A stretch of DNA of 25,633 nt from a virus. Lineage: Duplodnaviria > Heunggongvirae > Uroviricota > Caudoviricetes. The notes under the pieces were generated by a model. That model saw nothing but the letters and a program-made list of their open reading frames with translations. It had not been told where the DNA came from and made no database searches. The position numbers and the translations under genes are program-made. Location of the stretch: positions 1-25,633 of IMG/VR virus record IMGVR_UViG_2778261217_000004, one strand, 5' to 3'. Positions 1 to 19,808 of this stretch are shown here, piece by piece; position 1 is the stretch's first letter; the number at the start of each line of letters is the position of its first letter.

Positions 1-1143
1 CTATGCTGTTTTGATATCTACGATAATCCAGTCTTTACCACGATCATCATTGTATCGGTCGGTCATTTTTCTGGATTTATGGCCTAACAACTTTTGCGTA
101 TCCAGACCCTGTTCCCGATATAACCGTTCTGAGAGAGATCGCTGCTCATGAAATGTGGGCGCAGTTCCTTGCTCCCATTTTATGCCACATTTTTCCCGGG
201 CCTTTTTAAAAGCCGTTGTCAGAGTATTTGCAGAAACCTGGTCTCCTCTGTTTGCTTGAGAGGTAGTGTGACGGTAATGGACCAGATATTTACTAACAAC
301 AGCATCCCTGCACTGAGATATAACTTCACGAAGGGTAATATTCAGAGCATCGCATTTCAGGTTAAGCGGAATAGCAAGTCTTGAACCGGTTTTTTCCTGA
401 GTAATGTGCAACATGTCGTCCCATATATCAGAGAATTTCAAATTGCAGATATCGCCTAAACGTTGTCCAGTAACAAGAGCAAGTAGCATCCCGCATTTTA
501 AATAGGGCTGCCGTCTGCTTACGCTGTCAAATATTGCCTGCCATTCGGGCAGTGATAATCTTTGGCGGTTTACTCGATTTCGCGGTTGTTTTGTTGCCTG
601 CGCTGGGTTAAATCCTGGCGGAACATGTCCTGCGTGTTGTGCTTCTTTGAAGACGTCGATCAACACCATTCTCACGACTTGCGCCATCCTGTTATGACCT
701 TCAGCCTTTACAGCATCAATTATTTCGGCAATATCAAGTGCGGTAATATCCTTGAGGTGTTGCATTCCACAATGCTCACGGAAAAGACGAATGGGTTTGC
801 CTTTTTGCCGATAGGAGTTGGGTCTTAGTTCATTATGTTGCAGCCTGTCCTCCTGGATAGAAATATATTTATCAAGCCATTCTGTCACCGTAATGTCTGA
901 GCGCCTGCCTTTCATTCTTTCCAGACGCTCATTGACGCTTAATATTTGTCTGGTACGTTGTTCAGCAATAATGGTATTTGCTTCAGTAGCAACTTGTTTT
1001 GCTTCATTCTCATCAGTTCCTAAGCTATGAAAACGACCGGATAGTGGATGTTTGTATTGCCAATATACCTTTCCGGTTCGCTTATCTAATTTGCAATATA
1101 AATTGGGTATAGAGATTTTGTGAGATCGGGGTCTAGCAGCCAT
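1..1143 (-). CDS. int: Phage integrase, tyrosine recombinase (lambda Int family)
   Basis: 380-aa ORF alignable along its length to lambda Int; C-terminal catalytic block PTFHEQRSLSERLY...LLGHKS...RY; ATG at 1141-1143 overlaps xis stop; stop codon at 1-3. Confidence 0.93.
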   Translation of the reverse strand: MAARPRSHKISIPNLYCKLDKRTGKVYWQYKHPLSGRFHSLGTDENEAKQVATEANTIIAEQRTRQILSVNERLERMKGRRSDITVTEWLDKYISIQEDRLQHNELRPNSYRQKGKPIRLFREHCGMQHLKDITALDIAEIIDAVKAEGHNRMAQVVRMVLIDVFKEAQHAGHVPPGFNPAQATKQPRNRVNRQRLSLPEWQAIFDSVSRRQPYLKCGMLLALVTGQRLGDICNLKFSDIWDDMLHITQEKTGSRLAIPLNLKCDALNITLREVISQCRDAVVSKYLVHYRHTTSQANRGDQVSANTLTTAFKKAREKCGIKWEQGTAPTFHEQRSLSERLYREQGLDTQKLLGHKSRKMTDRYNDDRGKDWIIVDIKTA

Positions 1144-1369
1144 CAGCGATTATCCGTTGGAGTTTTGGGTTTGCGTTTATTGGGAGTTGCGGTTCTGCAA
1201 GCGTTCCTACAAAACGGGAATTTCGGTCAATCATCCAGTAGCGACCAACTTTTATAGCGGGTGGGGCCATCATTTTCCCTTGCGCGTATTTTTTCAGAAC
1301 TCGCTCACTTGGTGCTAAGTCCCCAAATTCTTCTTTAGCCCAGTCCTGTAAAGTGATTAGTCGAGACAT
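1133..1369 (-). CDS. xis: Excisionase
   Basis: 78-aa ORF directly upstream of and overlapping int; LTLQDWA... resembles lambda Xis N-terminus; GGAGGA RBS upstream. Confidence 0.8.
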   Translation of the reverse strand: MSRLITLQDWAKEEFGDLAPSERVLKKYAQGKMMAPPAIKVGRYWMIDRNSRFVGTLAEPQLPINANPKLQRIIADGC

Positions 1370-1508
1370 TTGTCCTCCTCTTAGCTGCTGAGGGAGTTTG
1401 TGACCGATATATCTGACATGATATTAAGCTCATGGCAGGTACATCTCTTGACTGGTCATAGAGATAAATTTAATGCTGAGAAATGCAGTATTGAATTTAT
1501 CAATTTTT

Positions 1509-1748
1509 CTATTTCCTGCGTATGGCACGTAACTTCTTAATGTGTTCTGCCGTTTCGATCTCTTCTGCTATCCGATCTGCATCAGCTTTATTCACAGGTT
1601 CAAAGTCATGATTAAAGCGGAACATGCTGGCGATACATGTTCTGCCTTTTCGGATGTAGTGAACTTTGTTGTGGGTAGAACGCAGGATTTTGCAGGGAGT
1701 GCCGTGGTGGTCGACGTACCAGGTGTTAGGAAAAATGATTCTGAACAT
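1509..1748 (-). CDS. Hypothetical phage accessory protein (79 aa)
   Basis: ORF in the xis-proximal accessory region, same orientation as the pL operon; no family recognised. Confidence 0.45.
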   Translation of the reverse strand: MFRIIFPNTWYVDHHGTPCKILRSTHNKVHYIRKGRTCIASMFRFNHDFEPVNKADADRIAEEIETAEHIKKLRAIRRK

Positions 1749-1795
1749 TTTTACACCTCAGTTGGACGATGTTGAAATTTGCTGCTTTGAGGCCA

Positions 1796-2014
1796 TCACA
1801 ATCCCCATTGTTTGTTCTTAAGTTCGATCTCCTCCTGGCAACTTGCACAAGTCCGACAACCCTGAACGACCAGGCGTCTTCGCTCATCTATCGGATCGCC
1901 ACACTCACAACAATGAGTGGCAGATACAGTCTGGTAGTTCAGACGACGCATTTTTATTGCTATATTGCGCTGTAATTCTTCGATTTCTGATGCTGAATCA
2001 ATGATGTCTGCCAT
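1796..2014 (-). CDS. TraR/DksA-family C4 zinc-finger protein
   Basis: 72-aa ORF with CxxC-17-CxxC (CCECGDPIDERRRLVVQGCRTCASC), typical of phage TraR-like proteins. Confidence 0.7.
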   Translation of the reverse strand: MADIIDSASEIEELQRNIAIKMRRLNYQTVSATHCCECGDPIDERRRLVVQGCRTCASCQEEIELKNKQWGL

Positions 2015-2064
2015 CTTCCATTAATCCCTGAATTGTTGGTTAATACGCTTGAGGGTGAATGCGA

Positions 2065-2090
2065 ATAATAAAAAAGGAGCCTGTAGCTCC
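2065..2090 (-). terminator. Intrinsic terminator between DGQHR gene and TraR-like gene (tL-like)
   Basis: Minus-strand hairpin GGAGCTACAGGCTCC followed by TTTTTTATTATTC. Confidence 0.55.
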
Positions 2091-2167
2091 CTGATGATTT
2101 TGCTTTTCATGTTCACCGTTCCTTAAAGACGCCGTACAGCATGCTGATATGAGACAATGTTGATTCA

Positions 2168-3232
2168 TTAAGTTGATTCCAGACTTCCTTTGGTAAATGC
2201 TTGTATCAGTCTGTTTGCTGCTGCTTTCTGCGCTGCCACATTGGCAATAACAGATAGTTTTTCCTGGCTGGCTTTCGTGCAGATCCCCGCCCAGTTATCC
2301 ATCAGAAAAAAATCCTCTCTTTCTGCAGAGCTGGTAGTTGCACATAGTTTTTCGATCATAGAAGTTATTTCTGCGATGGAATGATTAACCATCATCTGTT
2401 GAACCGCAAAACCGAAAGCGTTAATCATTACTCCATGGAACTGAATATAATCGCGCTTGTACGTAGCGTGGTGTACACCATGTCGGATTGAGTCAATCTG
2501 AGTTAGTGTAATCCATGCCTCCCAGACAGATTCTATATATCCCATTTCAAGTTGTTGATTGCCGTTCCTGGCGAACTTTGACGTTGCATCAGTGAGTGCC
2601 TTGAAACTCACCCACATATTACTTTTTAATGGCACTACGTTGTGTTCAAAATCGGTTATATCGGCAAATACAGTATGTTGGGTCAGGAAGGATATCATTC
2701 CCTGAGCAATATCATCCCGGCCGTTATACGCCATATTGATGGTCGCTGATGGCTTAGAAACGTTGTTATTTATGTCCGAAAAGAACTGCTGCCGGGTTTT
2801 TAGCGGCAGATTCATTGTAAGCATCATGGGAACCATGAGCGTTGATGGGGAACTTCGGCAAAATATCTCAATGCCAGCTGCACGATGTTGACCATCAAAA
2901 AGTTTTATTTCGGCGTCGAGGGGAATTCTGGCTATACCAACATTTGTGTTGCCAAACGGTACAAATTCTATATTCGAATCACAGTTACCTACGAGAGGGG
3001 GAATGATAAAAGGCTCATTTCTTGAGTCTGCGTTAGTGAGATAATTTAAAAATTTTCGTACTCGATTTGGATTAATTTCTCGCTGAGAGCGTTCCAGTGT
3101 ATGGCCGTAATTATCTGAAGCGAGGAAACGAGCCAGCGATCTTCCTGGTATGGTAAGGAAGAGTGTAACAGTACCACCCTGTACACCTTGCGATGCCGGA
3201 AATTCGAATGAATGATTACCAACCTGACTCAT
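2168..3232 (-). CDS. DGQHR-domain protein (DndB-like, ParB/Srx-fold)
   Basis: 354-aa ORF with the signature KLFDGQHRAAG; strong RBS AGGAGGATATAT before the ATG; lies downstream of exo in the leftward early operon. Confidence 0.8.
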   Translation of the reverse strand: MSQVGNHSFEFPASQGVQGGTVTLFLTIPGRSLARFLASDNYGHTLERSQREINPNRVRKFLNYLTNADSRNEPFIIPPLVGNCDSNIEFVPFGNTNVGIARIPLDAEIKLFDGQHRAAGIEIFCRSSPSTLMVPMMLTMNLPLKTRQQFFSDINNNVSKPSATINMAYNGRDDIAQGMISFLTQHTVFADITDFEHNVVPLKSNMWVSFKALTDATSKFARNGNQQLEMGYIESVWEAWITLTQIDSIRHGVHHATYKRDYIQFHGVMINAFGFAVQQMMVNHSIAEITSMIEKLCATTSSAEREDFFLMDNWAGICTKASQEKLSVIANVAAQKAAANRLIQAFTKGSLEST

Positions 3233-3383
3233 ATATCCTCCTGTTTATTATTTATCTTCTCAGCCAGCCGCTGTGCTTTCAGTGGATTTCTGATAACAGA
3301 AAGGCCGGGAAATACCCAGCCTCGCTTTGTAATGGAGTAGACGAAAGTGATCGCGCCTACCCGGATATTATCGTGAGGATGCG

Positions 3384-4064
3384 TCATCGCCATTGCTCCC
3401 CAAATACAAAACCAATTTCAGCCAGTGCCTCGTCCATTTTTTCGATGAACTCCGGCACCATCTCGTCAAAACTCGCCATGTACTTTTCATTCCGCTCAAT
3501 CACGACATAATGCAGGCCTTCACGCTTCATGCGCGGGTCATAGTTGGCAAAGTACCAGGCATCTTTTCGCGTCACCCACATGCTGTACTGCACCTGGGCC
3601 ATGTAAGCCGATTTTATTGCCTCGAAACCACCGAGCCGGAATTTCATGAAATCCCGGGAGGTAAACGGGCATTTCAGTTCAAGGCCGTTGCCGTCACTGC
3701 ATAAACCATCGGGAGAGCAGGCGGTGCGCATACTTTCGTCGCGATAGATGATCGGGGATTCAGTAATATTCACGCCGGAAGTGAATTCAAACAGGGTTCT
3801 GGCGTCGTTCTCGTACTGTTTTCCCCAGGCCAGCGCCTTAGCATTAACTTCCGGAGCCACACCGGTGCAAACCTCAGCCAGCAGGGTGTGGAAGTAGGAC
3901 ATTTTCATGTCAGGCCACTTCTTTCCTGAGCGGGGCTTTGCTATCACGTTGTGAACTTCTGAAGCGGTGATGACGCCGAGCCGTAATTTGTGCCATGCAT
4001 CATCCCCCTGTTCGACAGCTCTCACGTCGATCCCGGTACGCTGCAGGATAATGTCCGGTATCAT
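3384..4064 (-). CDS. exo: Lambda exonuclease (Red-alpha)
   Basis: 226 aa, near-identical to lambda Exo ([54 protein letters not shown]...); ATGA overlap with bet stop. Confidence 0.97.
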
Positions 4065-4846
4065 GCTGCCACCTTCTGCTCAGTGGCTTTCTGTTTCAGG
4101 AATCCAAGAGCTTTCACTGCTTCGGCCTGTGTCAGTTCTGACGATGCGCGAATGTCGCGGCGAAATATCTGGGAACAGAGCGGCAATAAGTCGTCATCCC
4201 ATGTTTTATCCAGGGCGATCAGCAGAGTGTTAATCTCCTGCATGGTTTCATCGTTAACCGGAGTGATGTCGCGTTCTGGCTGACGTTCTGCAGTGTATGC
4301 AGTATTTTCGACAATGCGCTCGGCTTCATCCTTGTCATAGATACCAGCAAATCCGAAGGCCAGACGGGCACACTGAATCATGGCTTTATGCCGTAACATC
4401 CGTTTGGGATGCGACTGCCACGGCCCCGTGATTTCTCTGCCTTCGCGGGTTTTGAATGGTTCGCGGCGGCATTCATCCATCCATTCGGTAACGCAGATCG
4501 GATGATTACGGTCCTTGCGGTAAATCCGGCATGTACAGGATTCATTGTCCTGCTCAAAGTCCATGCCATCAAACTGCTGGTTTTCATTGATGATGCGGGA
4601 CCAGCCATCAACGCCCACCACCGGAACAATGCCGTTCTGCTTATCAGGGAAGGCGTAAATTTCTTTCGTCCACGGATTAAGGCCGTACTGGTTGGCGACG
4701 ATCAACAATGCGATGAACTGCGCATCGCTGGCATCACCTTTAAATGCCGTCTGGCGAAGAGTGGTGATCAGTTCCTGTGGGTCGACAGAATCCATGCCGA
4801 CACGTTCAGCCAGCTTCCCTGCCAGCGTTGCGAGTGCTGTACTCAT
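4061..4846 (-). CDS. bet: Recombinase Bet (Red-beta, ssDNA annealing protein)
   Basis: 261 aa, near-identical to lambda Bet; GAGGT RBS. Confidence 0.97.
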
Positions 4847-4851
4847 CCGTT

Positions 4852-5148
4852 TTATACCTCTGAATCAATATCAACCTGGTGGTGAGCAATGGTTTCAACC
4901 ATGTACCGGATGTGTTCTGCCATGCGCTCCTGAAACTCAACATCGTCATCAAACGCACGGGTAATGGCTTTTTTGCTGGCCCCGCAGCGTTGCAAATGAT
5001 CGATGCAGAGTGATTCAAACAGGTGCTGTGGAAGACCTTTTTCCATGTCGTCTGCCAGTTCTGACTCTTTCTCTTCACGGGCGATCTGCTGGTAGTGACG
5101 TGCCCAGCTCAGACCCTCAAGACGATCCTGAATGTAATAAGCGTTCAT
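4852..5148 (-). CDS. gam: Gam, RecBCD inhibitor (98-aa short form)
   Basis: [11 protein letters not shown]...[10 protein letters not shown] matches lambda GamS; AGGAG RBS 7 nt upstream. Confidence 0.93.
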
Positions 5149-5223
5149 GGCTGAACTCCTGAAAATGGCTGTGAAAATATCGCCCGCGAAATGCCAGGCT
5201 GATTAGGAAAACAGGAAAGGGGA

Positions 5224-5634
5224 TTAGTGATTCAGGCCATTACCGCGTCCGTCGAAAAAAACTTCCACGAGCAAATCACGGGTATAAGTGCGCTCGATGC
5301 CGCGATGCAGATATAGCCGTCCGCGTAAATTAGCTGATGCAGTCCAGGTACCATCTTTGTGTTTGACCAGCATTCCTGGCATGACCGCACCTCGATTAAC
5401 GGTCTGCGTTCCGTAATGTTGATGAACCATAAAAACTCCTGCCCGTAAGCTGGGCTGCTGAACATATAGAGACTTCTGCGCGTATTCAGGCGGTGGATGG
5501 CCGCCGGTTGTCATAACTAAGCCGCCTCGTTGAAGCGACTGAGGTATGAGGTGTTGAGTTGATTTCAGCTGGTCACACCGACGTTCACGCGTCCGTTTCA
5601 CCCCTCGCACTCCCCGGAGCCTGCCGAAATTCAA
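5224..5634 (-). CDS. Hypothetical protein, first ORF downstream of candidate pL; start uncertain (TTG at 5634, internal ATG with AGGAG RBS at 5430)
   Basis: 136-codon open frame; N-terminal arginine-rich stretch [15 protein letters not shown]; internal start MVHQHYG preceded by AGGAG. Confidence 0.4.
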
Positions 5635-5699
5635 GCTGCGGATCTAAGCGGTCATCGCAACGGTGAATCAGGTGGTTGCCGTATCGTTGTGTTGTTGCG

Positions 5700-5790
5700 A
5701 CATGGTGATAATAGCTATTGCTATTGGTGGTATCAATACTTATTGCTATTGATTGATGTGTTTTGATATTAACTGTTTGATAGCAAAAAG
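5700..5790 (-). promoter_or_regulatory. Candidate OL/pL: leftward sigma70 promoter with operator repeats
   Basis: Minus strand TTGATA (5731-5736) - 17 nt - TATTAT (5708-5713); ATAGCAAT/ATTGCTAT motif repeated, same motif as in the cI-cro intergenic region. Confidence 0.5.
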
Positions 5791-5874
5791 AATTAATTTT
5801 GTGACTTGCATCGCATAGCGATAACTGAAGGGAGGTTGTGGTGGTTTTTCGAACGGTTTGTGTGATGAGGGGAG

Positions 5875-5906
5875 GGGACAAAAGAAAACCCGGCACGGTG
5901 GCCGGG
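5875..5906 (-). terminator. Intrinsic terminator ending the cI / ImmA-like / PIN-like transcription unit
   Basis: Minus-strand hairpin CCCGGCCACCGTGCCGGG followed by TTTTCTTTTG, 6 nt after the stop of the 5912-6424 gene. Confidence 0.65.
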
Positions 5907-5911
5907 ACGTT

Positions 5912-6424
5912 TTATTTCAAAGAAAAATTATGACTAGCGTATCTTGGAAGAAATTCATATAGTGTTAATGTCTTAACGCCGTGAGAAGCAGCAGCATCCG
6001 GGATCATTATTCTTTTTTTAGGTTTGCCACCGGATGGTTTCTCATGGGTAATAATAGTATATCCATGTGTCATCGCATGGGCTATTAAAAAAGCATCTGC
6101 TTTTTCATGGCTTGCAAAATCAAACTTTGCCTTTTCGGTAACATCTAATTTAGTTGACCAATTTATTAACTTTGCATAATTTTCTATTGAACTATGCTCA
6201 TCTTCGAAGAATGATGATGGTAACTCTTCTTTAATCCATTTACACAATGGATCATCTTTTGCACATAGTTCTTTTTTTACAGCATTAATGCTATAAATCA
6301 GACCATTCATGTGTAAAGCGAGAAGAAAATCCCAAAATATTTTGCAATAATTGAAGTTATATGCAAAGTTTTTTGCCTCTATGAAGACATTACTATCAAT
6401 TAAGAATTTTCCATTATGAATCAT
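5912..6424 (-). CDS. PIN-like (DUF4411-type) predicted nuclease
   Basis: 170 aa; N-terminal FLIDSNVFIEA resembles the first strand and Asp of PIN domains; ATGA start-stop overlap with upstream metallopeptidase gene. Confidence 0.7.
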   Translation of the reverse strand: MIHNGKFLIDSNVFIEAKNFAYNFNYCKIFWDFLLALHMNGLIYSINAVKKELCAKDDPLCKWIKEELPSSFFEDEHSSIENYAKLINWSTKLDVTEKAKFDFASHEKADAFLIAHAMTHGYTIITHEKPSGGKPKKRIMIPDAAASHGVKTLTLYEFLPRYASHNFSLK

Positions 6425-7560
6425 AGAGATTCTCGTTTTTTATAAAATTCAACAACTGTATCTGCTTTTACATTTAGCAGTACGCCTGCTTCCCTTAATG
6501 GTAATTGTTGAGACATTGCTTTGGAAATTATTATATTCGTAAGTTTTGGACTGTTACGAACAGGTAATGTGTTAAAGAAAGAACCACCATTAGATTCTTT
6601 TTTGGGCTTATTGTAAGCTTGATCTTTAATTATCTCCAAAGTGTTTCTTTCTATCAAATCTAATTGTAACGCTTTGATTGCACAAGCGAAATCACTAACC
6701 TTAAATAACTTAGAAACCTCTTTTACCCGATAATAATTATTATCGCTGGATGCATTAAGCCAGAAAGATTTGAAGAGATTATCAGGCATTAAGATTTCAG
6801 CAGCAACTTTATTACAAAAAGATTCTATGTTTTTTTCTGTGTCCCACCCAGAGACTCCATCGACTCCAAGCCAAAGATGAGCCACCTCATGAAATAATGT
6901 AAATACCTGCGCAGATAACGCGTCCGAGCTATTTACAAAAATGATCGGAGCAACGCTATCAGATATACAGAAACCACGAAACTCTCGCGTGTCAAGTTTT
7001 CTTTTATTATTATTACCCACAACACCATTCTTGAAAACTAATACGCCAGTGTCTTCTATTAGTTTTGCCACTTTAGAAAAATAGCTCTCAAAAGTGACAT
7101 TTTTTATCTCTTTTTGTATATCAAAATGTATTGTGTTTGCTATGTCTGTAGCAACAACCTTATAATTTAATTTTCTATTAAATTTAAATTTACCAATAAA
7201 ATCGAGTGGATCATCATTACCATTTTCTCTTAAATAGTCTTTGTACCACTCAAGTTTATATTCTATATCATAGTAAACATCAAAAAAATCTTTTCCTAAC
7301 TCACGGCTATTTATAGCTTGCCTTAAGTCAGGGATCTTGGGTTTGGCTGGAGTTGGTGGCGTTTCAAGAAATAAAAAACCGAAAGGGATTCCTCCAATTT
7401 TTGCCAGTTTTTCTGCTGCGGATTTACTTACCACTCCGTTAAGAAATTTATTAATCTTTTTGGGCATGACTTGGTCAGCAAGAGTTTCGATAGAAACTCC
7501 TTGAGAATTTGCTATCCAATCAATCATCTTCCTAGACAATTGAAATTCAACCGCTGCCAT
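6421..7560 (-). CDS. HTH-containing ImmA/IrrE-family zinc metallopeptidase (COG2856/DUF955-like)
   Basis: 379 aa; N-terminal HTH-like segment; HExxH motif HEVAHLWLG; AGGTGA RBS. Confidence 0.75.
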   Translation of the reverse strand: MAAVEFQLSRKMIDWIANSQGVSIETLADQVMPKKINKFLNGVVSKSAAEKLAKIGGIPFGFLFLETPPTPAKPKIPDLRQAINSRELGKDFFDVYYDIEYKLEWYKDYLRENGNDDPLDFIGKFKFNRKLNYKVVATDIANTIHFDIQKEIKNVTFESYFSKVAKLIEDTGVLVFKNGVVGNNNKRKLDTREFRGFCISDSVAPIIFVNSSDALSAQVFTLFHEVAHLWLGVDGVSGWDTEKNIESFCNKVAAEILMPDNLFKSFWLNASSDNNYYRVKEVSKLFKVSDFACAIKALQLDLIERNTLEIIKDQAYNKPKKESNGGSFFNTLPVRNSPKLTNIIISKAMSQQLPLREAGVLLNVKADTVVEFYKKRESL

Positions 7561-11303: not shown

Positions 11304-11370
11304 TGAAACAGGTGAGTTGAGTTCAAACTGTAGTACAATTCTCTCCAGTTTGAACAGGAAAGAATATGCT

Positions 11371-11703
11371 ATGAACCCTTATATTTATCTTGGTGGTGCA
11401 ATACTTGCAGAGGTCATTGGTACAACCTTAATGAAGTTTTCAGAAGGTTTTACACGATTATGGCCATCTGTTGGTACAATTATTTGTTATTGTGCATCAT
11501 TCTGGTTATTAGCTCAGACGCTGGCTTATATTCCTACAGGGATTGCTTATGCTATCTGGTCAGGAGTCGGTATTGTCCTGATTAGTTTACTGTCATGGGG
11601 ATTTTTCGGCCAACGGCTGGACCTGCCAGCCATTATAGGCATGATGTTGATTTGTGCCGGTGTGTTGGTTATTAATTTATTGTCACGAAGCACACCACAT
11701 TAA
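11371..11703 (+). CDS. emrE: SMR-family multidrug efflux transporter EmrE
   Basis: 110 aa from MNPYIYLGGAILAEVIGTTLMKFSEGF..., matching E. coli EmrE; track ORF starts further upstream at 11317. Confidence 0.93.
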   Translation: MNPYIYLGGAILAEVIGTTLMKFSEGFTRLWPSVGTIICYCASFWLLAQTLAYIPTGIAYAIWSGVGIVLISLLSWGFFGQRLDLPAIIGMMLICAGVLVINLLSRSTPH

Positions 11704-11733
11704 AATAATTTGTTTCTAAACGACTAAAATATG

Positions 11734-11770
11734 GAGGCTCTTATATTTATATGAGCCTCGTTTTATGCTT
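11734..11770 (+). terminator. Intrinsic terminator after emrE
   Basis: Hairpin GAGGCTC-(12 nt loop)-GAGCCTC followed by GTTTTATGCTTTTTG. Confidence 0.6.
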
Positions 11771-11957
11771 TTTGTTAATGTCTTTATTTTTTATGTATTC
11801 TTTTGTGCTTTCAAGATTATGGCGTAAGAAAATTGCAATACGATTATTGTTGTATATTCAAGATAATGTGACCTTAATTGTCTTTTTAAATAAAAATTAA
11901 ACAAAAATTATATCCCACCACTAAGGTTTATAAAAGCATACGTTAGCAGGTGTCACC

Positions 11958-13484
11958 ATGAAAAAAGCCATAGCATATATGCGATTTTCATCACCAGGTC
12001 AGATGTCTGGTGACTCATTAAACCGACAGAGAAGACTTATTGCTGAATGGTTAAAGGTAAATAGTGATTATTATCTTGATACCATAACATATGAAGATTT
12101 AGGATTAAGTGCATTCAAAGGAAAGCATGCACAATCAGGAGCTTTTTCGGAATTTTTAGATGCTATAGAGCATGGTTATATATTGCCAGGAACTACATTG
12201 TTAGTTGAAAGTCTGGACAGACTTTCAAGAGAAAAAGTCGGTGAAGCGATTGAACGTCTGAAATTGATTTTGAATCACGGTATTGATGTTATAACTCTTT
12301 GCGACAATACAGTCTATAATATTGACTCTTTGAATGAGCCATATTCATTAATAAAAGCCATACTTATAGCACAAAGGGCAAATGAAGAAAGCGAGATAAA
12401 GTCAAGTCGGGTTAAATTATCATGGAAGAAAAAACGGCAGGATGCACTGGAATCAGGTACGATTATGACGGCGTCTTGTCCGAGATGGCTCTCCTTAGAT
12501 GACAAAAGAACGGCTTTTGTTCCAGACCCCGACAGGGTGAAAACTATTGAGCTAATTTTTAAACTCAGGATGGAAAGGCGCTCATTGAATGCAATAGCCA
12601 AGTATTTAAATGATCATGCTGTAAAGAATTTCTCAGGAAAAGAAAGTGCATGGGGACCTTCTGTAATTGAAAAATTATTAGCGAATAAAGCTCTGATAGG
12701 TATATGCGTACCTTCATATCGTGCAAGAGGGAAAGGGATAAGTGAAATCGCTGGCTATTATCCCAGAGTCATATCAGATGATTTGTTTTACGCTGTACAG
12801 GAAATTCGGTTGGCACCTTTTGGTATTAGCAATAGTAGCAAGAATCCTATGCTAATAAATCTACTTCGAACAGTTATGAAGTGTGAGGCTTGTGGTAATA
12901 CCATGATTGTTCATGCGGTATCTGGAAGTTTGCATGGCTATTATGTTTGTCCAATGAGAAGATTACATCGATGTGACAGGCCATCAATAAAAAGAGATTT
13001 GGTTGATTATAATATCATTAATGAATTGCTTTTTAATTGTAGCAAAATTCAACCAGTTGAAAACAAGAAAGATGCTAATGAAACTTTAGAGTTAAAAATT
13101 ATTGAGCTTCAGATGAAAATTAATAATTTAATCGTTGCATTGTCTGTCGCGCCTGAAGTTACCGCTATAGCAGAGAAAATAAGACTATTAGATAAGGAAT
13201 TACGAAGGGCTTCGGTATCATTGAAAACTTTGAAGAGTAAAGGTGTAAATTCATTCAGTGATTTTTATGCTATTGACTTAACCAGTAAAAATGGACGAGA
13301 GTTATGCCGTACACTTGCCTATAAAACATTCGAAAAAATCATAATTAATACGGATAATAAAACCTGTGATATCTATTTTATGAATGGCATTGTTTTTAAA
13401 CACTATCCTTTAATGAAAGTAATATCCGCCCAGCAGGCGATAAGTGCTCTCAAATATATGGTTGATGGTGAGGTTTATTTTTGA
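11958..13484 (+). CDS. ybcK: Serine recombinase (resolvase/invertase-type catalytic domain, large C-terminal extension)
   Basis: 508 aa; N-terminal AIAYMRFSSPGQ catalytic-serine region; AT-rich gene; AGGTG RBS. Confidence 0.8.
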   Translation: MKKAIAYMRFSSPGQMSGDSLNRQRRLIAEWLKVNSDYYLDTITYEDLGLSAFKGKHAQSGAFSEFLDAIEHGYILPGTTLLVESLDRLSREKVGEAIERLKLILNHGIDVITLCDNTVYNIDSLNEPYSLIKAILIAQRANEESEIKSSRVKLSWKKKRQDALESGTIMTASCPRWLSLDDKRTAFVPDPDRVKTIELIFKLRMERRSLNAIAKYLNDHAVKNFSGKESAWGPSVIEKLLANKALIGICVPSYRARGKGISEIAGYYPRVISDDLFYAVQEIRLAPFGISNSSKNPMLINLLRTVMKCEACGNTMIVHAVSGSLHGYYVCPMRRLHRCDRPSIKRDLVDYNIINELLFNCSKIQPVENKKDANETLELKIIELQMKINNLIVALSVAPEVTAIAEKIRLLDKELRRASVSLKTLKSKGVNSFSDFYAIDLTSKNGRELCRTLAYKTFEKIIINTDNKTCDIYFMNGIVFKHYPLMKVISAQQAISALKYMVDGEVYF

Positions 13485-19224: not shown

Positions 19225-19808
19225 TGGCATTCAGAATGAGTGAACAACCACGGACCATAAAAATTTATAATCTGCTGGCCGGAACTAATGAATTTATTGG
19301 TGAAGGTGACGCATATATTCCGCCTCATACAGGTCTGCCAGCAAACAGTACCGATATTGCACCACCAGATATTCCGGCTGGCTTTGTGGCTGTTTTCAAC
19401 AGTGATGAGGCATCGTGGCATCTCGTTGAAGACCATCGGGGTAAAACCGTCTATGACGTGGCTTCCGGCGACGCGTTATTTATTTCTGAACTCGGCTCAT
19501 TACCGGAAAATGTCACCTGGTTATCCCCGGAAGGGGAGTTTCAGAAGTGGAACGGCACAACCTGGGTGAAAGATGCAGAAGCAGAAAAACTGTTCCGGAT
19601 CCGGGAGGCGGAAGAAACAAAAAACAGCCTGATGCGTGTAGCCAGTGAGCATATTGCGCCACTTCAGGATGCTGCAGATCTGGAAATCGCAACGGAGGAA
19701 GAAACCTCGTTGCTTGAAGCCTGGAAGAAGTATCGGGTGTTGCTGAATCGTGTTGATACATCAACTGCACCTGATATTGAGTGGCCTGCAATCCCTGTTA
19801 TGGAATAA
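19224..19808 (+). CDS. tfa: Tail fibre assembly protein (Tfa family)
   Basis: 194 aa [31 protein letters not shown]..., typical lambdoid Tfa; TAATG overlap with upstream stop. Confidence 0.9.

Follow-up and report, generated by a model that had tools for sequence, protein, structure and literature searches.

This analysis concerns a DGQHR-domain protein gene at 2168..3232 on the minus strand of IMG/VR record IMGVR_UViG_2778261217_000004, a caudovirus sequence whose full 25,633 nucleotides are referred to here as the window. The window spans a lambda-like prophage's left arm and a portion of its right arm, and an identical prophage copy was found integrated beside icd in E. coli SCU-152. The gene order on the minus strand was int (1-1143), xis, DUF4222, a DksA/TraR zinc finger gene, the DGQHR gene, DUF1317, exo, bet, and gam. 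The original prediction had described an open reading frame (ORF) with a strong ribosome-binding site, placed in the early-left operon with the Red genes and lacking dnd, ssp, or dpd partners, and each of these statements held. The ORF was intact, encoded 354 amino acids from an ATG start, contained the string KLFDGQHRAAG, and was assigned to the DndB superfamily from the ORF list, profile matches, and an AlphaFold2 model. The ribosome-binding site AGGAGG (3237..3242, minus strand) ended 4 nt before the ATG.

The genes immediately upstream were tightly packed. The start of DUF1317 (54 aa; 3229..3393, minus strand; Pfam PF07026, 106.9 bits) overlapped the end of exo, and the ATG of the DGQHR gene overlapped the DUF1317 TGA in the sequence ATGA, an arrangement that implies translational coupling. 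The Red module of exo, bet, and gam (3384..5148, minus strand) lay upstream in the same transcription unit and was identified by Pfam (YqaJ 102.9 bits, RecT 115.6 bits, Gam 207.5 bits) and by the RefSeq annotation of the identical prophage. A consensus scan found no minus-strand promoter-like site between the DGQHR gene and 5736..5708, where the nearest upstream site lies just beyond a terminator-like hairpin. This hairpin (5906..5889) is GC-rich and precedes the promoter-like site; no N-like antiterminator gene was annotated between cI and gam (5224-5906, minus strand). As far as can be judged from sequence, the DGQHR gene is part of the gam-bet-exo operon and is co-transcribed with the Red genes. 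Its operon position, the apparent translational coupling, and the absence of a promoter-like site of its own are consistent with early expression upon entry or induction. No dnd, ssp, dpd, methyltransferase, or phosphoadenosine phosphosulfate (PAPS) reductase gene was annotated in the matching SCU-152 prophage from int to the tail fibre genes, and Rfam and tRNA scans gave no match near the DGQHR gene.

Profile searches confirmed that the protein is a genuine member of the DGQHR-domain family. It matched NCBIfam TIGR03187, the DGQHR domain, with 188.8 bits (cut-off 58.85), Pfam DndB PF14072 over residues 11-286 with 158.2 bits (cut-off 29.1), and PHROG 7901, a family of unknown function, with 716 bits; with these scores, the motif is not a coincidence. 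Assignment to DndB proper was rejected, given that the TIGR03233 equivalog score was 106.9 bits, far under the cut-off of 328, and that the prophage carries no dnd, ssp, or dpd genes. The protein resembles DndB of Salmonella enterica Cerro 87 (TIGR03233, PF14072) in domain family, signature motifs, and length (~350 aa) but differs in its sub-threshold equivalog score and in having no dndCDE, dndFGH, or iscS-linked genes and no TACGN10CGTA operator. Whereas DndB heads a modification operon, the DGQHR gene sits in a phage early operon. A PADLOC scan of the protein matched the DndB model only and returned no stand-alone system.

The three signatures by which the DGQHR domain has been defined, the QR pair, DGQHR, and FxxxN (PMC4619093), were all present. 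The QR pair (Q50-R51 in RSQRE; 3080..3085, minus strand) was invariant in both of our alignments. The DGQHR pentapeptide itself (D113-R117 in KLFDGQHRAAG; 2882..2896, minus strand) is a predicted nucleoside triphosphate (NTP)-binding motif, and its D, Q, and R were invariant in 20 relatives at 27-73% identity; it is considered equivalent to the GxxR of ParB and the DGQQR of SspE and DpdB (PMC4619093, PMC10164549). In the FxxxN motif (F151-N155 in RQQFFSDIN; 2768..2782, minus strand), R, Q, F, D, and N were invariant. Motif coordinates are given in full-length numbering, which is one higher than that of the two alignments (A1 and A2). Across 120 clusters at 90% identity, 127 of the 354 positions were at least 95% conserved.

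The AlphaFold2 model (pLDDT 90.8, pTM 0.84) predicted an N-terminal domain with a ParB/sulfiredoxin (Srx) fold, followed by a C-terminal helical domain; the last ~70 residues are not covered by the Pfam match. No close solved structure was found by sequence or family-profile search, Foldseek against the PDB returned nothing at E ≤0.001, and a BFVD structure search gave weak DndB, DUF262, and ParB-like matches only. The Pfam search of the protein gave only the DndB domain, with no nuclease domain, no helix-turn-helix (HTH) domain, and no DUF262 or DUF1524 match. An EHNVVP string (E196-H197-x3-P201) was considered as a counterpart of the SspE EHxxP nuclease motif and rejected, since the spacing differs and the histidine varies (H/R/K) among relatives. 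The earlier idea of a superinfection-exclusion nuclease consequently gained no support.

The protein shares with DpdB, SspE, DndI, and GmrS (DUF262) a predicted ParB/Srx-fold N-terminal domain, a DGQxR motif, and a link to modification biology. These proteins carry DGQQR, however, where the motif here is DGQHR, and SspE, DndI, and GmrSD carry a DUF1524 HNH nuclease that is missing from this protein. Membership in the GmrSD/SspE/DndI group was thus not supported by domain matches, by the EH...P spacing, or by conservation of the histidine, and membership in the DpdB group was not supported by the motif or by the gene content of the prophage, which has neither dpdA nor dpdC. Unlike the ParB-family switches (ParB, KorB, and the ParB homologues of plasmid leading regions), the protein had no ParBc or HTH_ParB Pfam match and no ParA partner or parS site.

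E. coli phages sharing the exo-DUF1317 flank were compared. Their flanks were 97-99% identical, while the DNA between them differed. By blastn against six sister loci (L177, L179, L180, L197, L238, and L245) and inspection of the junction sequences, the left flank ran from 4900 to 3229 and the right flank from 2148 to 1519 (both minus strand), with breakpoints at 3229/3228 and 2149/2148. The exchanged segment (2149..3228, minus strand) consists of the DGQHR ORF following the ATGA, plus 19 nt. The right-flank alignment begins within the end of a T1/phrog_303 gene (...IGMLNGVFKER*), and the last 11 codons and stop of that gene remain at 2113..2148 (minus strand). The DGQHR cassette has displaced most of the phrog_303 gene of sister phages and left an 11-codon remnant, and a 42-aa ORF called at 2040..2168 is therefore spurious. 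In the shared right flank, just 3' of the cassette, the consensus scan found a putative terminator-like hairpin followed by a T-run (2074..2092, minus strand; 8 pairs, 4 GC, tail TTTTATTATT).

The first gene of every allele at this slot used the same ATG and the same ribosome-binding site and overlapped the DUF1317 stop. Allele frequencies were counted over 5,426 complete E. coli genomes at a query cover of at least 80%. The default allele, a pair of small genes (DUF1382 and phrog_303), was present in 2,888 genomes, the single-gene DGQHR allele in 282, and a Dam methylase allele (PF05869) in 244. A DpdA-like allele occurred in 95 genomes; it encodes 250 aa, is annotated as a queuine tRNA-ribosyltransferase, and matches phrog_887 (334.8 bits), which we take to be the phage DpdA family. 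RefSeq annotates this slot gene as hypothetical only. The rarest allele, in 29 genomes, encoded a PAPS-reductase-domain protein (414 aa; PF01507, 75.5 bits; phrog_424) and, after it, a class I S-adenosylmethionine (SAM) methyltransferase. Slot loci in sister phages lie at 6837-9502 in L177 and L180, at 6837-7646 in L197 and L238, and at 850-1781 in L245. Only three of 65 phages with an exo at least 98% identical carried the DGQHR gene.

By these junctions, the DGQHR ORF is a single-gene, apparently translationally coupled cassette that is allelic with three kinds of DNA-modifying enzyme, in a variable slot common to Dam, DpdA-like, and PAPS-reductase genes. In cells, the DGQHR protein DndB has DndC, of the PAPS-reductase family, as its partner (PMC4507180), and the related DGQQR protein DpdB is partnered by DpdA, of the TGT family (PMC10164549). 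In the sister phages, the DndC-like and DpdA-like enzymes were alternatives to the DGQHR gene and not its neighbours, so that, whereas DpdB works with DpdA, the DpdA-like gene here is an alternative allele. The cassette shares its slot, ribosome-binding site, ATG, and operon with the kinds of genes that serve phages in anti-restriction (orphan Dam and other methyltransferases, phage DpdA, and the vibriophage PAPS-reductase-Dam), but those are enzymes of known chemistry, and the DGQHR protein has no recognisable DNA-modification catalytic domain.

The original prediction had named partner modification genes nearby in related prophages as a finding that would refute a stand-alone gene. No linkage to dndCDE or dndFGH was found in the window, in the matching prophage, or among 80 loci of related phages. 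A DNA methyltransferase (MT-A70, Dam, N6_N4, or C5) did start within 500 bp 3' of the DGQHR stop in 38 of 51 related phage loci. At first sight this refuted the stand-alone gene, but a lineage-matched control removed that reading. Among SPN1S-like loci sharing RecT, the methyltransferase was present in all 58, of which 54 have no DGQHR gene, which indicates that it follows the phage backbone. None of 29 loci with the E. coli DGQHR allele had an adjoining methyltransferase, and in lambda-like E. coli phages with an exo at least 98% identical and no DGQHR gene, one followed exo in two of 62 loci. The adjacency is thus explained by the backbone and a methyltransferase partnership was rejected. 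The control supports the DGQHR gene as a stand-alone accessory cassette, which in the SPN1S-like phages is an optional insertion upstream of the methyltransferase.

In many of the Salmonella/Klebsiella-type relatives (L002-L091), the DGQHR gene is separated from the methyltransferase by the gene of a 154-179-aa HTH-repeat protein (clusters C11 and C36), with a match to phrog_323 ('transcriptional regulator, D5-like') and weak ones to GcrA and sigma-70 region 4. A protein annotated as DndB on a Pseudomonas aeruginosa plasmid was considered as a positive control and rejected, as it is itself stand-alone. This 549-aa 'DNA sulfur modification protein DndB' of pF065 (L331, 6509-8158) has no dnd neighbours and lies near SprT-like, HU, RdgC, and cytosine methyltransferase genes. 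On plasmids, it seems common for a stand-alone DGQHR protein to bear the DndB name.

The gene is already annotated and common, and its domain family is known. It was present at 99% identity or higher in 284 of the 5,426 complete E. coli genomes (~5%), where RefSeq labels it a DGQHR domain-containing protein and DUF1317 adjoins it in every match listed. At 62-73% identity, relatives were found in SPN1S and similar phages of Salmonella as well as in prophages of Klebsiella and other enterobacteria. An exhaustive search of 1.84 billion cluster representatives gave only 586 matches at E ≤0.001, about a dozen of them aligned over the full length. The protein scan of genome contigs yielded one locus only, a 5.5-kb contig labelled 'MAG: Bacillota bacterium' (L007; JAEWTL010000063.1), and was set aside; this contig carries a 100% identical copy of the gene and is most likely mis-binned E. 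coli prophage DNA.

Beyond the phages, full-length relatives at 37-45% identity sit on conjugative plasmids. Specifically, one lies between a KlcA-type antirestriction gene and psiA. Another is flanked by a DnaJ-domain gene and ardA, and a KlcA-type antirestriction gene and hha follow further 3'. An IncL/M relative belongs to a block with RadC/JAB, Hha, KlcA, and single-stranded DNA-binding protein (SSB) genes, and a further relative adjoins ssb on an integrative and conjugative element (ICE) of Xenorhabdus. Homologues were present on 1,071 PLSDB plasmids, 885 of which are conjugative. Genes of the ArdA, KlcA, PsiA, and SSB types are markers of the leading regions of plasmids, where anti-defence genes abound (PMC11541004, PMC7736820). 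The IncL/M homologue, 42% identical, is intact in pCTXM360 and split by IS1B in IncL plasmids of pOXA-48 size (~63.5 kb; H68-H80).

Two plasmid-type loci shared a conserved arrangement of a DGQHR gene, a small ORF, and a 669-aa PAPS-reductase-family protein (L092, 6001-9538; L099, 6983-10505). L092 is a Citrobacter plasmid typed as MPF_F with a KorB-domain gene upstream, and L099 is a near-syntenic Salmonella contig; downstream of the pair, each carries a JAB/RadC gene and an N6 methylase. Judged by its gene content, the pair combines a DndB-like and a DndC-like gene in a module that is not part of a dnd cluster. The stand-alone subfamily on mobile elements with its plasmid and ICE neighbourhoods, together with the precise cassette slot and its allelic series, goes beyond the existing annotation.

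These observations led us to favour a counter-defence role, to which we assign a probability of roughly 0.4. Here, the DGQHR protein would be an early-expressed, NTP-gated DNA-binding factor directed against restriction that reads DNA modification status. The protein belongs to a subfamily found on mobile elements rather than in dnd clusters. It would be made early, with Gam, Bet, and Exo, upon infection or induction and probably not in the repressed lysogen. ATP or GTP may be bound through the pocket formed by the QR, DGQHR, and FxxxN motifs, and the protein may then close on DNA as other ParB-fold NTPases do. ATP and GTP binding has been reported for another DndB-like protein. Phage DNA would in this way be helped to escape such restriction, and the cassette would fill the role that Dam, DpdA-like, and PAPS-reductase cassettes have in sister phages. 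Because the cassette brings no catalytic partner, action by binding, occluding, or mis-regulating would be expected rather than chemistry. The anti-defence idea of the original prediction gained circumstantial support in this respect, from the allelism with the three modification-enzyme cassettes and from relatives beside ArdA, KlcA, PsiA, and SSB genes. The known anti-Dnd proteins were considered as relatives and rejected: JSS1_004 is an unrelated kinase, and the demonstrated anti-Dnd factor of a vibriophage is a PAPS-reductase-Dam fusion (10.1101/2021.05.05.442762), not a DGQHR protein.

A wider proposal, which we consider possible but doubtful, is that the stand-alone DGQHR proteins of phages, plasmids, and ICEs form a new class of counter-defence proteins. 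On this view they would act as NTP-gated mimics of DndB or as clamps on DNA, disarming or misleading immunity that reads modification (Dnd, Ssp, Dpd, or classical restriction-modification systems) and not themselves modifying DNA. In nature, they and the cassettes for Dam, DpdA, and PAPS reductase would be interchangeable at a recombination hot spot that is precise.

Several points weigh against a counter-defence role. All of the functional evidence for it is guilt by position, and a literature search on the subfamily returned no paper dealing with it and no experiment on any member. DndB is a transcriptional repressor and not a protective factor (PMC4507180). In 2,888 genomes, the E. coli slot contains its commonest allele, a pair of small genes with no assigned function, which shows that the slot is not solely for DNA modification, and the alternative cassettes of the SPN1S-like slot (S3, S10, and S17) had no informative annotation, being mostly function-unassigned. 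The predicted pI of the protein is 6.55, not basic, so strong non-specific DNA binding is not favoured. The IS1 split in plasmids of pOXA-48 size indicates that the homologue is dispensable there.

Since DndB, the nearest relative to have been characterised, is a repressor that regulates itself and binds TACGN10CGTA palindromes (PMC4507180), the protein might instead be a DndB-like, ATP-modulated, sequence-specific transcription factor that tunes phage or host genes, for example in the lysis-lysogeny decision, as has been proposed for other genes of the exo-xis region. Genes of that region in lambdoid phages do influence lysogenisation and induction (PMC3824215), and HTH-like genes often adjoin the DGQHR gene in relatives (C11 and C36, phrog_323). 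We nonetheless regard a regulator as unlikely. A DndB-type operator was sought and rejected: the window had no TACGN10CGTA site (0 vs. 0.15 expected by chance), and positions 1-6000 had a single inverted repeat of at least 14 nt, a palindrome inside exo that is not informative. The lack of a Pfam HTH domain in the protein also counts against regulation, as do the alternative slot alleles, which are enzymes and not regulators, and the plasmid neighbours, which are anti-restriction genes. A role in defence or exclusion, with the protein as a ParB/Srx-fold NTPase or DNase attacking or blocking competing phages or plasmids in the manner of Osa of pSa, appears distinctly improbable. Osa has been named among the ParB-like superfamily's members and is a ParB/Srx-fold ATPase and DNase. 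The DUF262-type ParB-fold relatives SspE, DndI, GmrSD, and BrxU are defence nucleases (PMC4619093 among the sources), and prophages commonly carry defence genes, for which the window has a candidate at 5912-7560. The DGQHR protein, however, has the DndB domain without a nuclease domain, its E196-H197-x3-P201 string is unlike the EHxxP of SspE and DUF1524 in spacing and conservation, and PADLOC recognised no stand-alone system in it. With no promoter of its own and coupling to a repressed early operon, production in the lysogen would also be unlikely, which argues against defence.

Another explanation is that the protein serves, in the way of DndB with DndCDE or DpdB with DpdA, as the cofactor of a DNA-modifying enzyme whose gene lies elsewhere, and steers an enzyme of the host or of another prophage onto phage DNA. 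ParB-fold NTPases that carry a DGQ[HQ]R motif are found alongside modification enzymes, and the DpdB ATPase is required for DpdA activity although the two form no stable complex (PMC10164549). The plasmid pairing of a DGQHR gene with the 669-aa PAPS-reductase protein fits this proposal, as do a temperate Vibrio phage in which a DGQHR gene is followed by a C5 methylase and Pseudoalteromonas phage KB12-38, whose DGQHR gene lies among PAPS reductases and methylases. Yet the prophage itself has no such enzyme, the DndC-like and DpdA-like genes of sister phages replace the DGQHR gene instead of adjoining it, and the methyltransferase adjacency is accounted for by the phage backbone, which together make a cofactor role quite improbable. 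The location of the gene directly 3' of exo-DUF1317, and of RecT/exonuclease modules in the Salmonella and Klebsiella relatives, could also suggest an accessory of recombination or replication that acts with Red on DNA ends or intermediates. This seems very improbable, given that so few phages with a near-identical exo carry the gene (three of 65) and that homologues occur on plasmids and ICEs that have neither Red nor RecET genes.

Should the counter-defence reading prove correct, this common gene would define a new family of anti-restriction proteins that do not rely on chemical modification, with bearing on phage-therapy host range and on plasmid spread; DGQHR homologues reach IncL/M carbapenemase plasmids. 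If it is wrong, the gene would simply add to the annotated accessory genes, without an assigned function, of the lambdoid exo-xis region. The allelic series (default, DGQHR, Dam, DpdA-like, and PAPS-reductase) with its identical flanks means that isogenic phages could easily be built and compared directly.

Elsewhere in the window, three further features were observed. A two-gene pair on the minus strand at 5912-7560, with a 4-nt overlap and a GC content of 32-36%, lies between cI and the early-left operon in the position of lambda rexAB. It encodes a DUF4411 protein (PF14367, 129.7 bits) and an ImmA/IrrE M78 peptidase (PF06114), the latter matching PADLOC capP with 52.7 bits and RmrA with about 30 bits, and the pair is a candidate lysogen-expressed defence or toxin-antitoxin moron. 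On the plus strand, an island of emrE and ybcK (a serine recombinase) with a GC content of 35-38% occupies 11317-13484 in the replication/nin region, as in DLP12. Lastly, an Rfam IS009 RNA match (217.7 bits vs. a gathering score of 117 bits) was found near the lysis genes at 19567-19765 on the plus strand.

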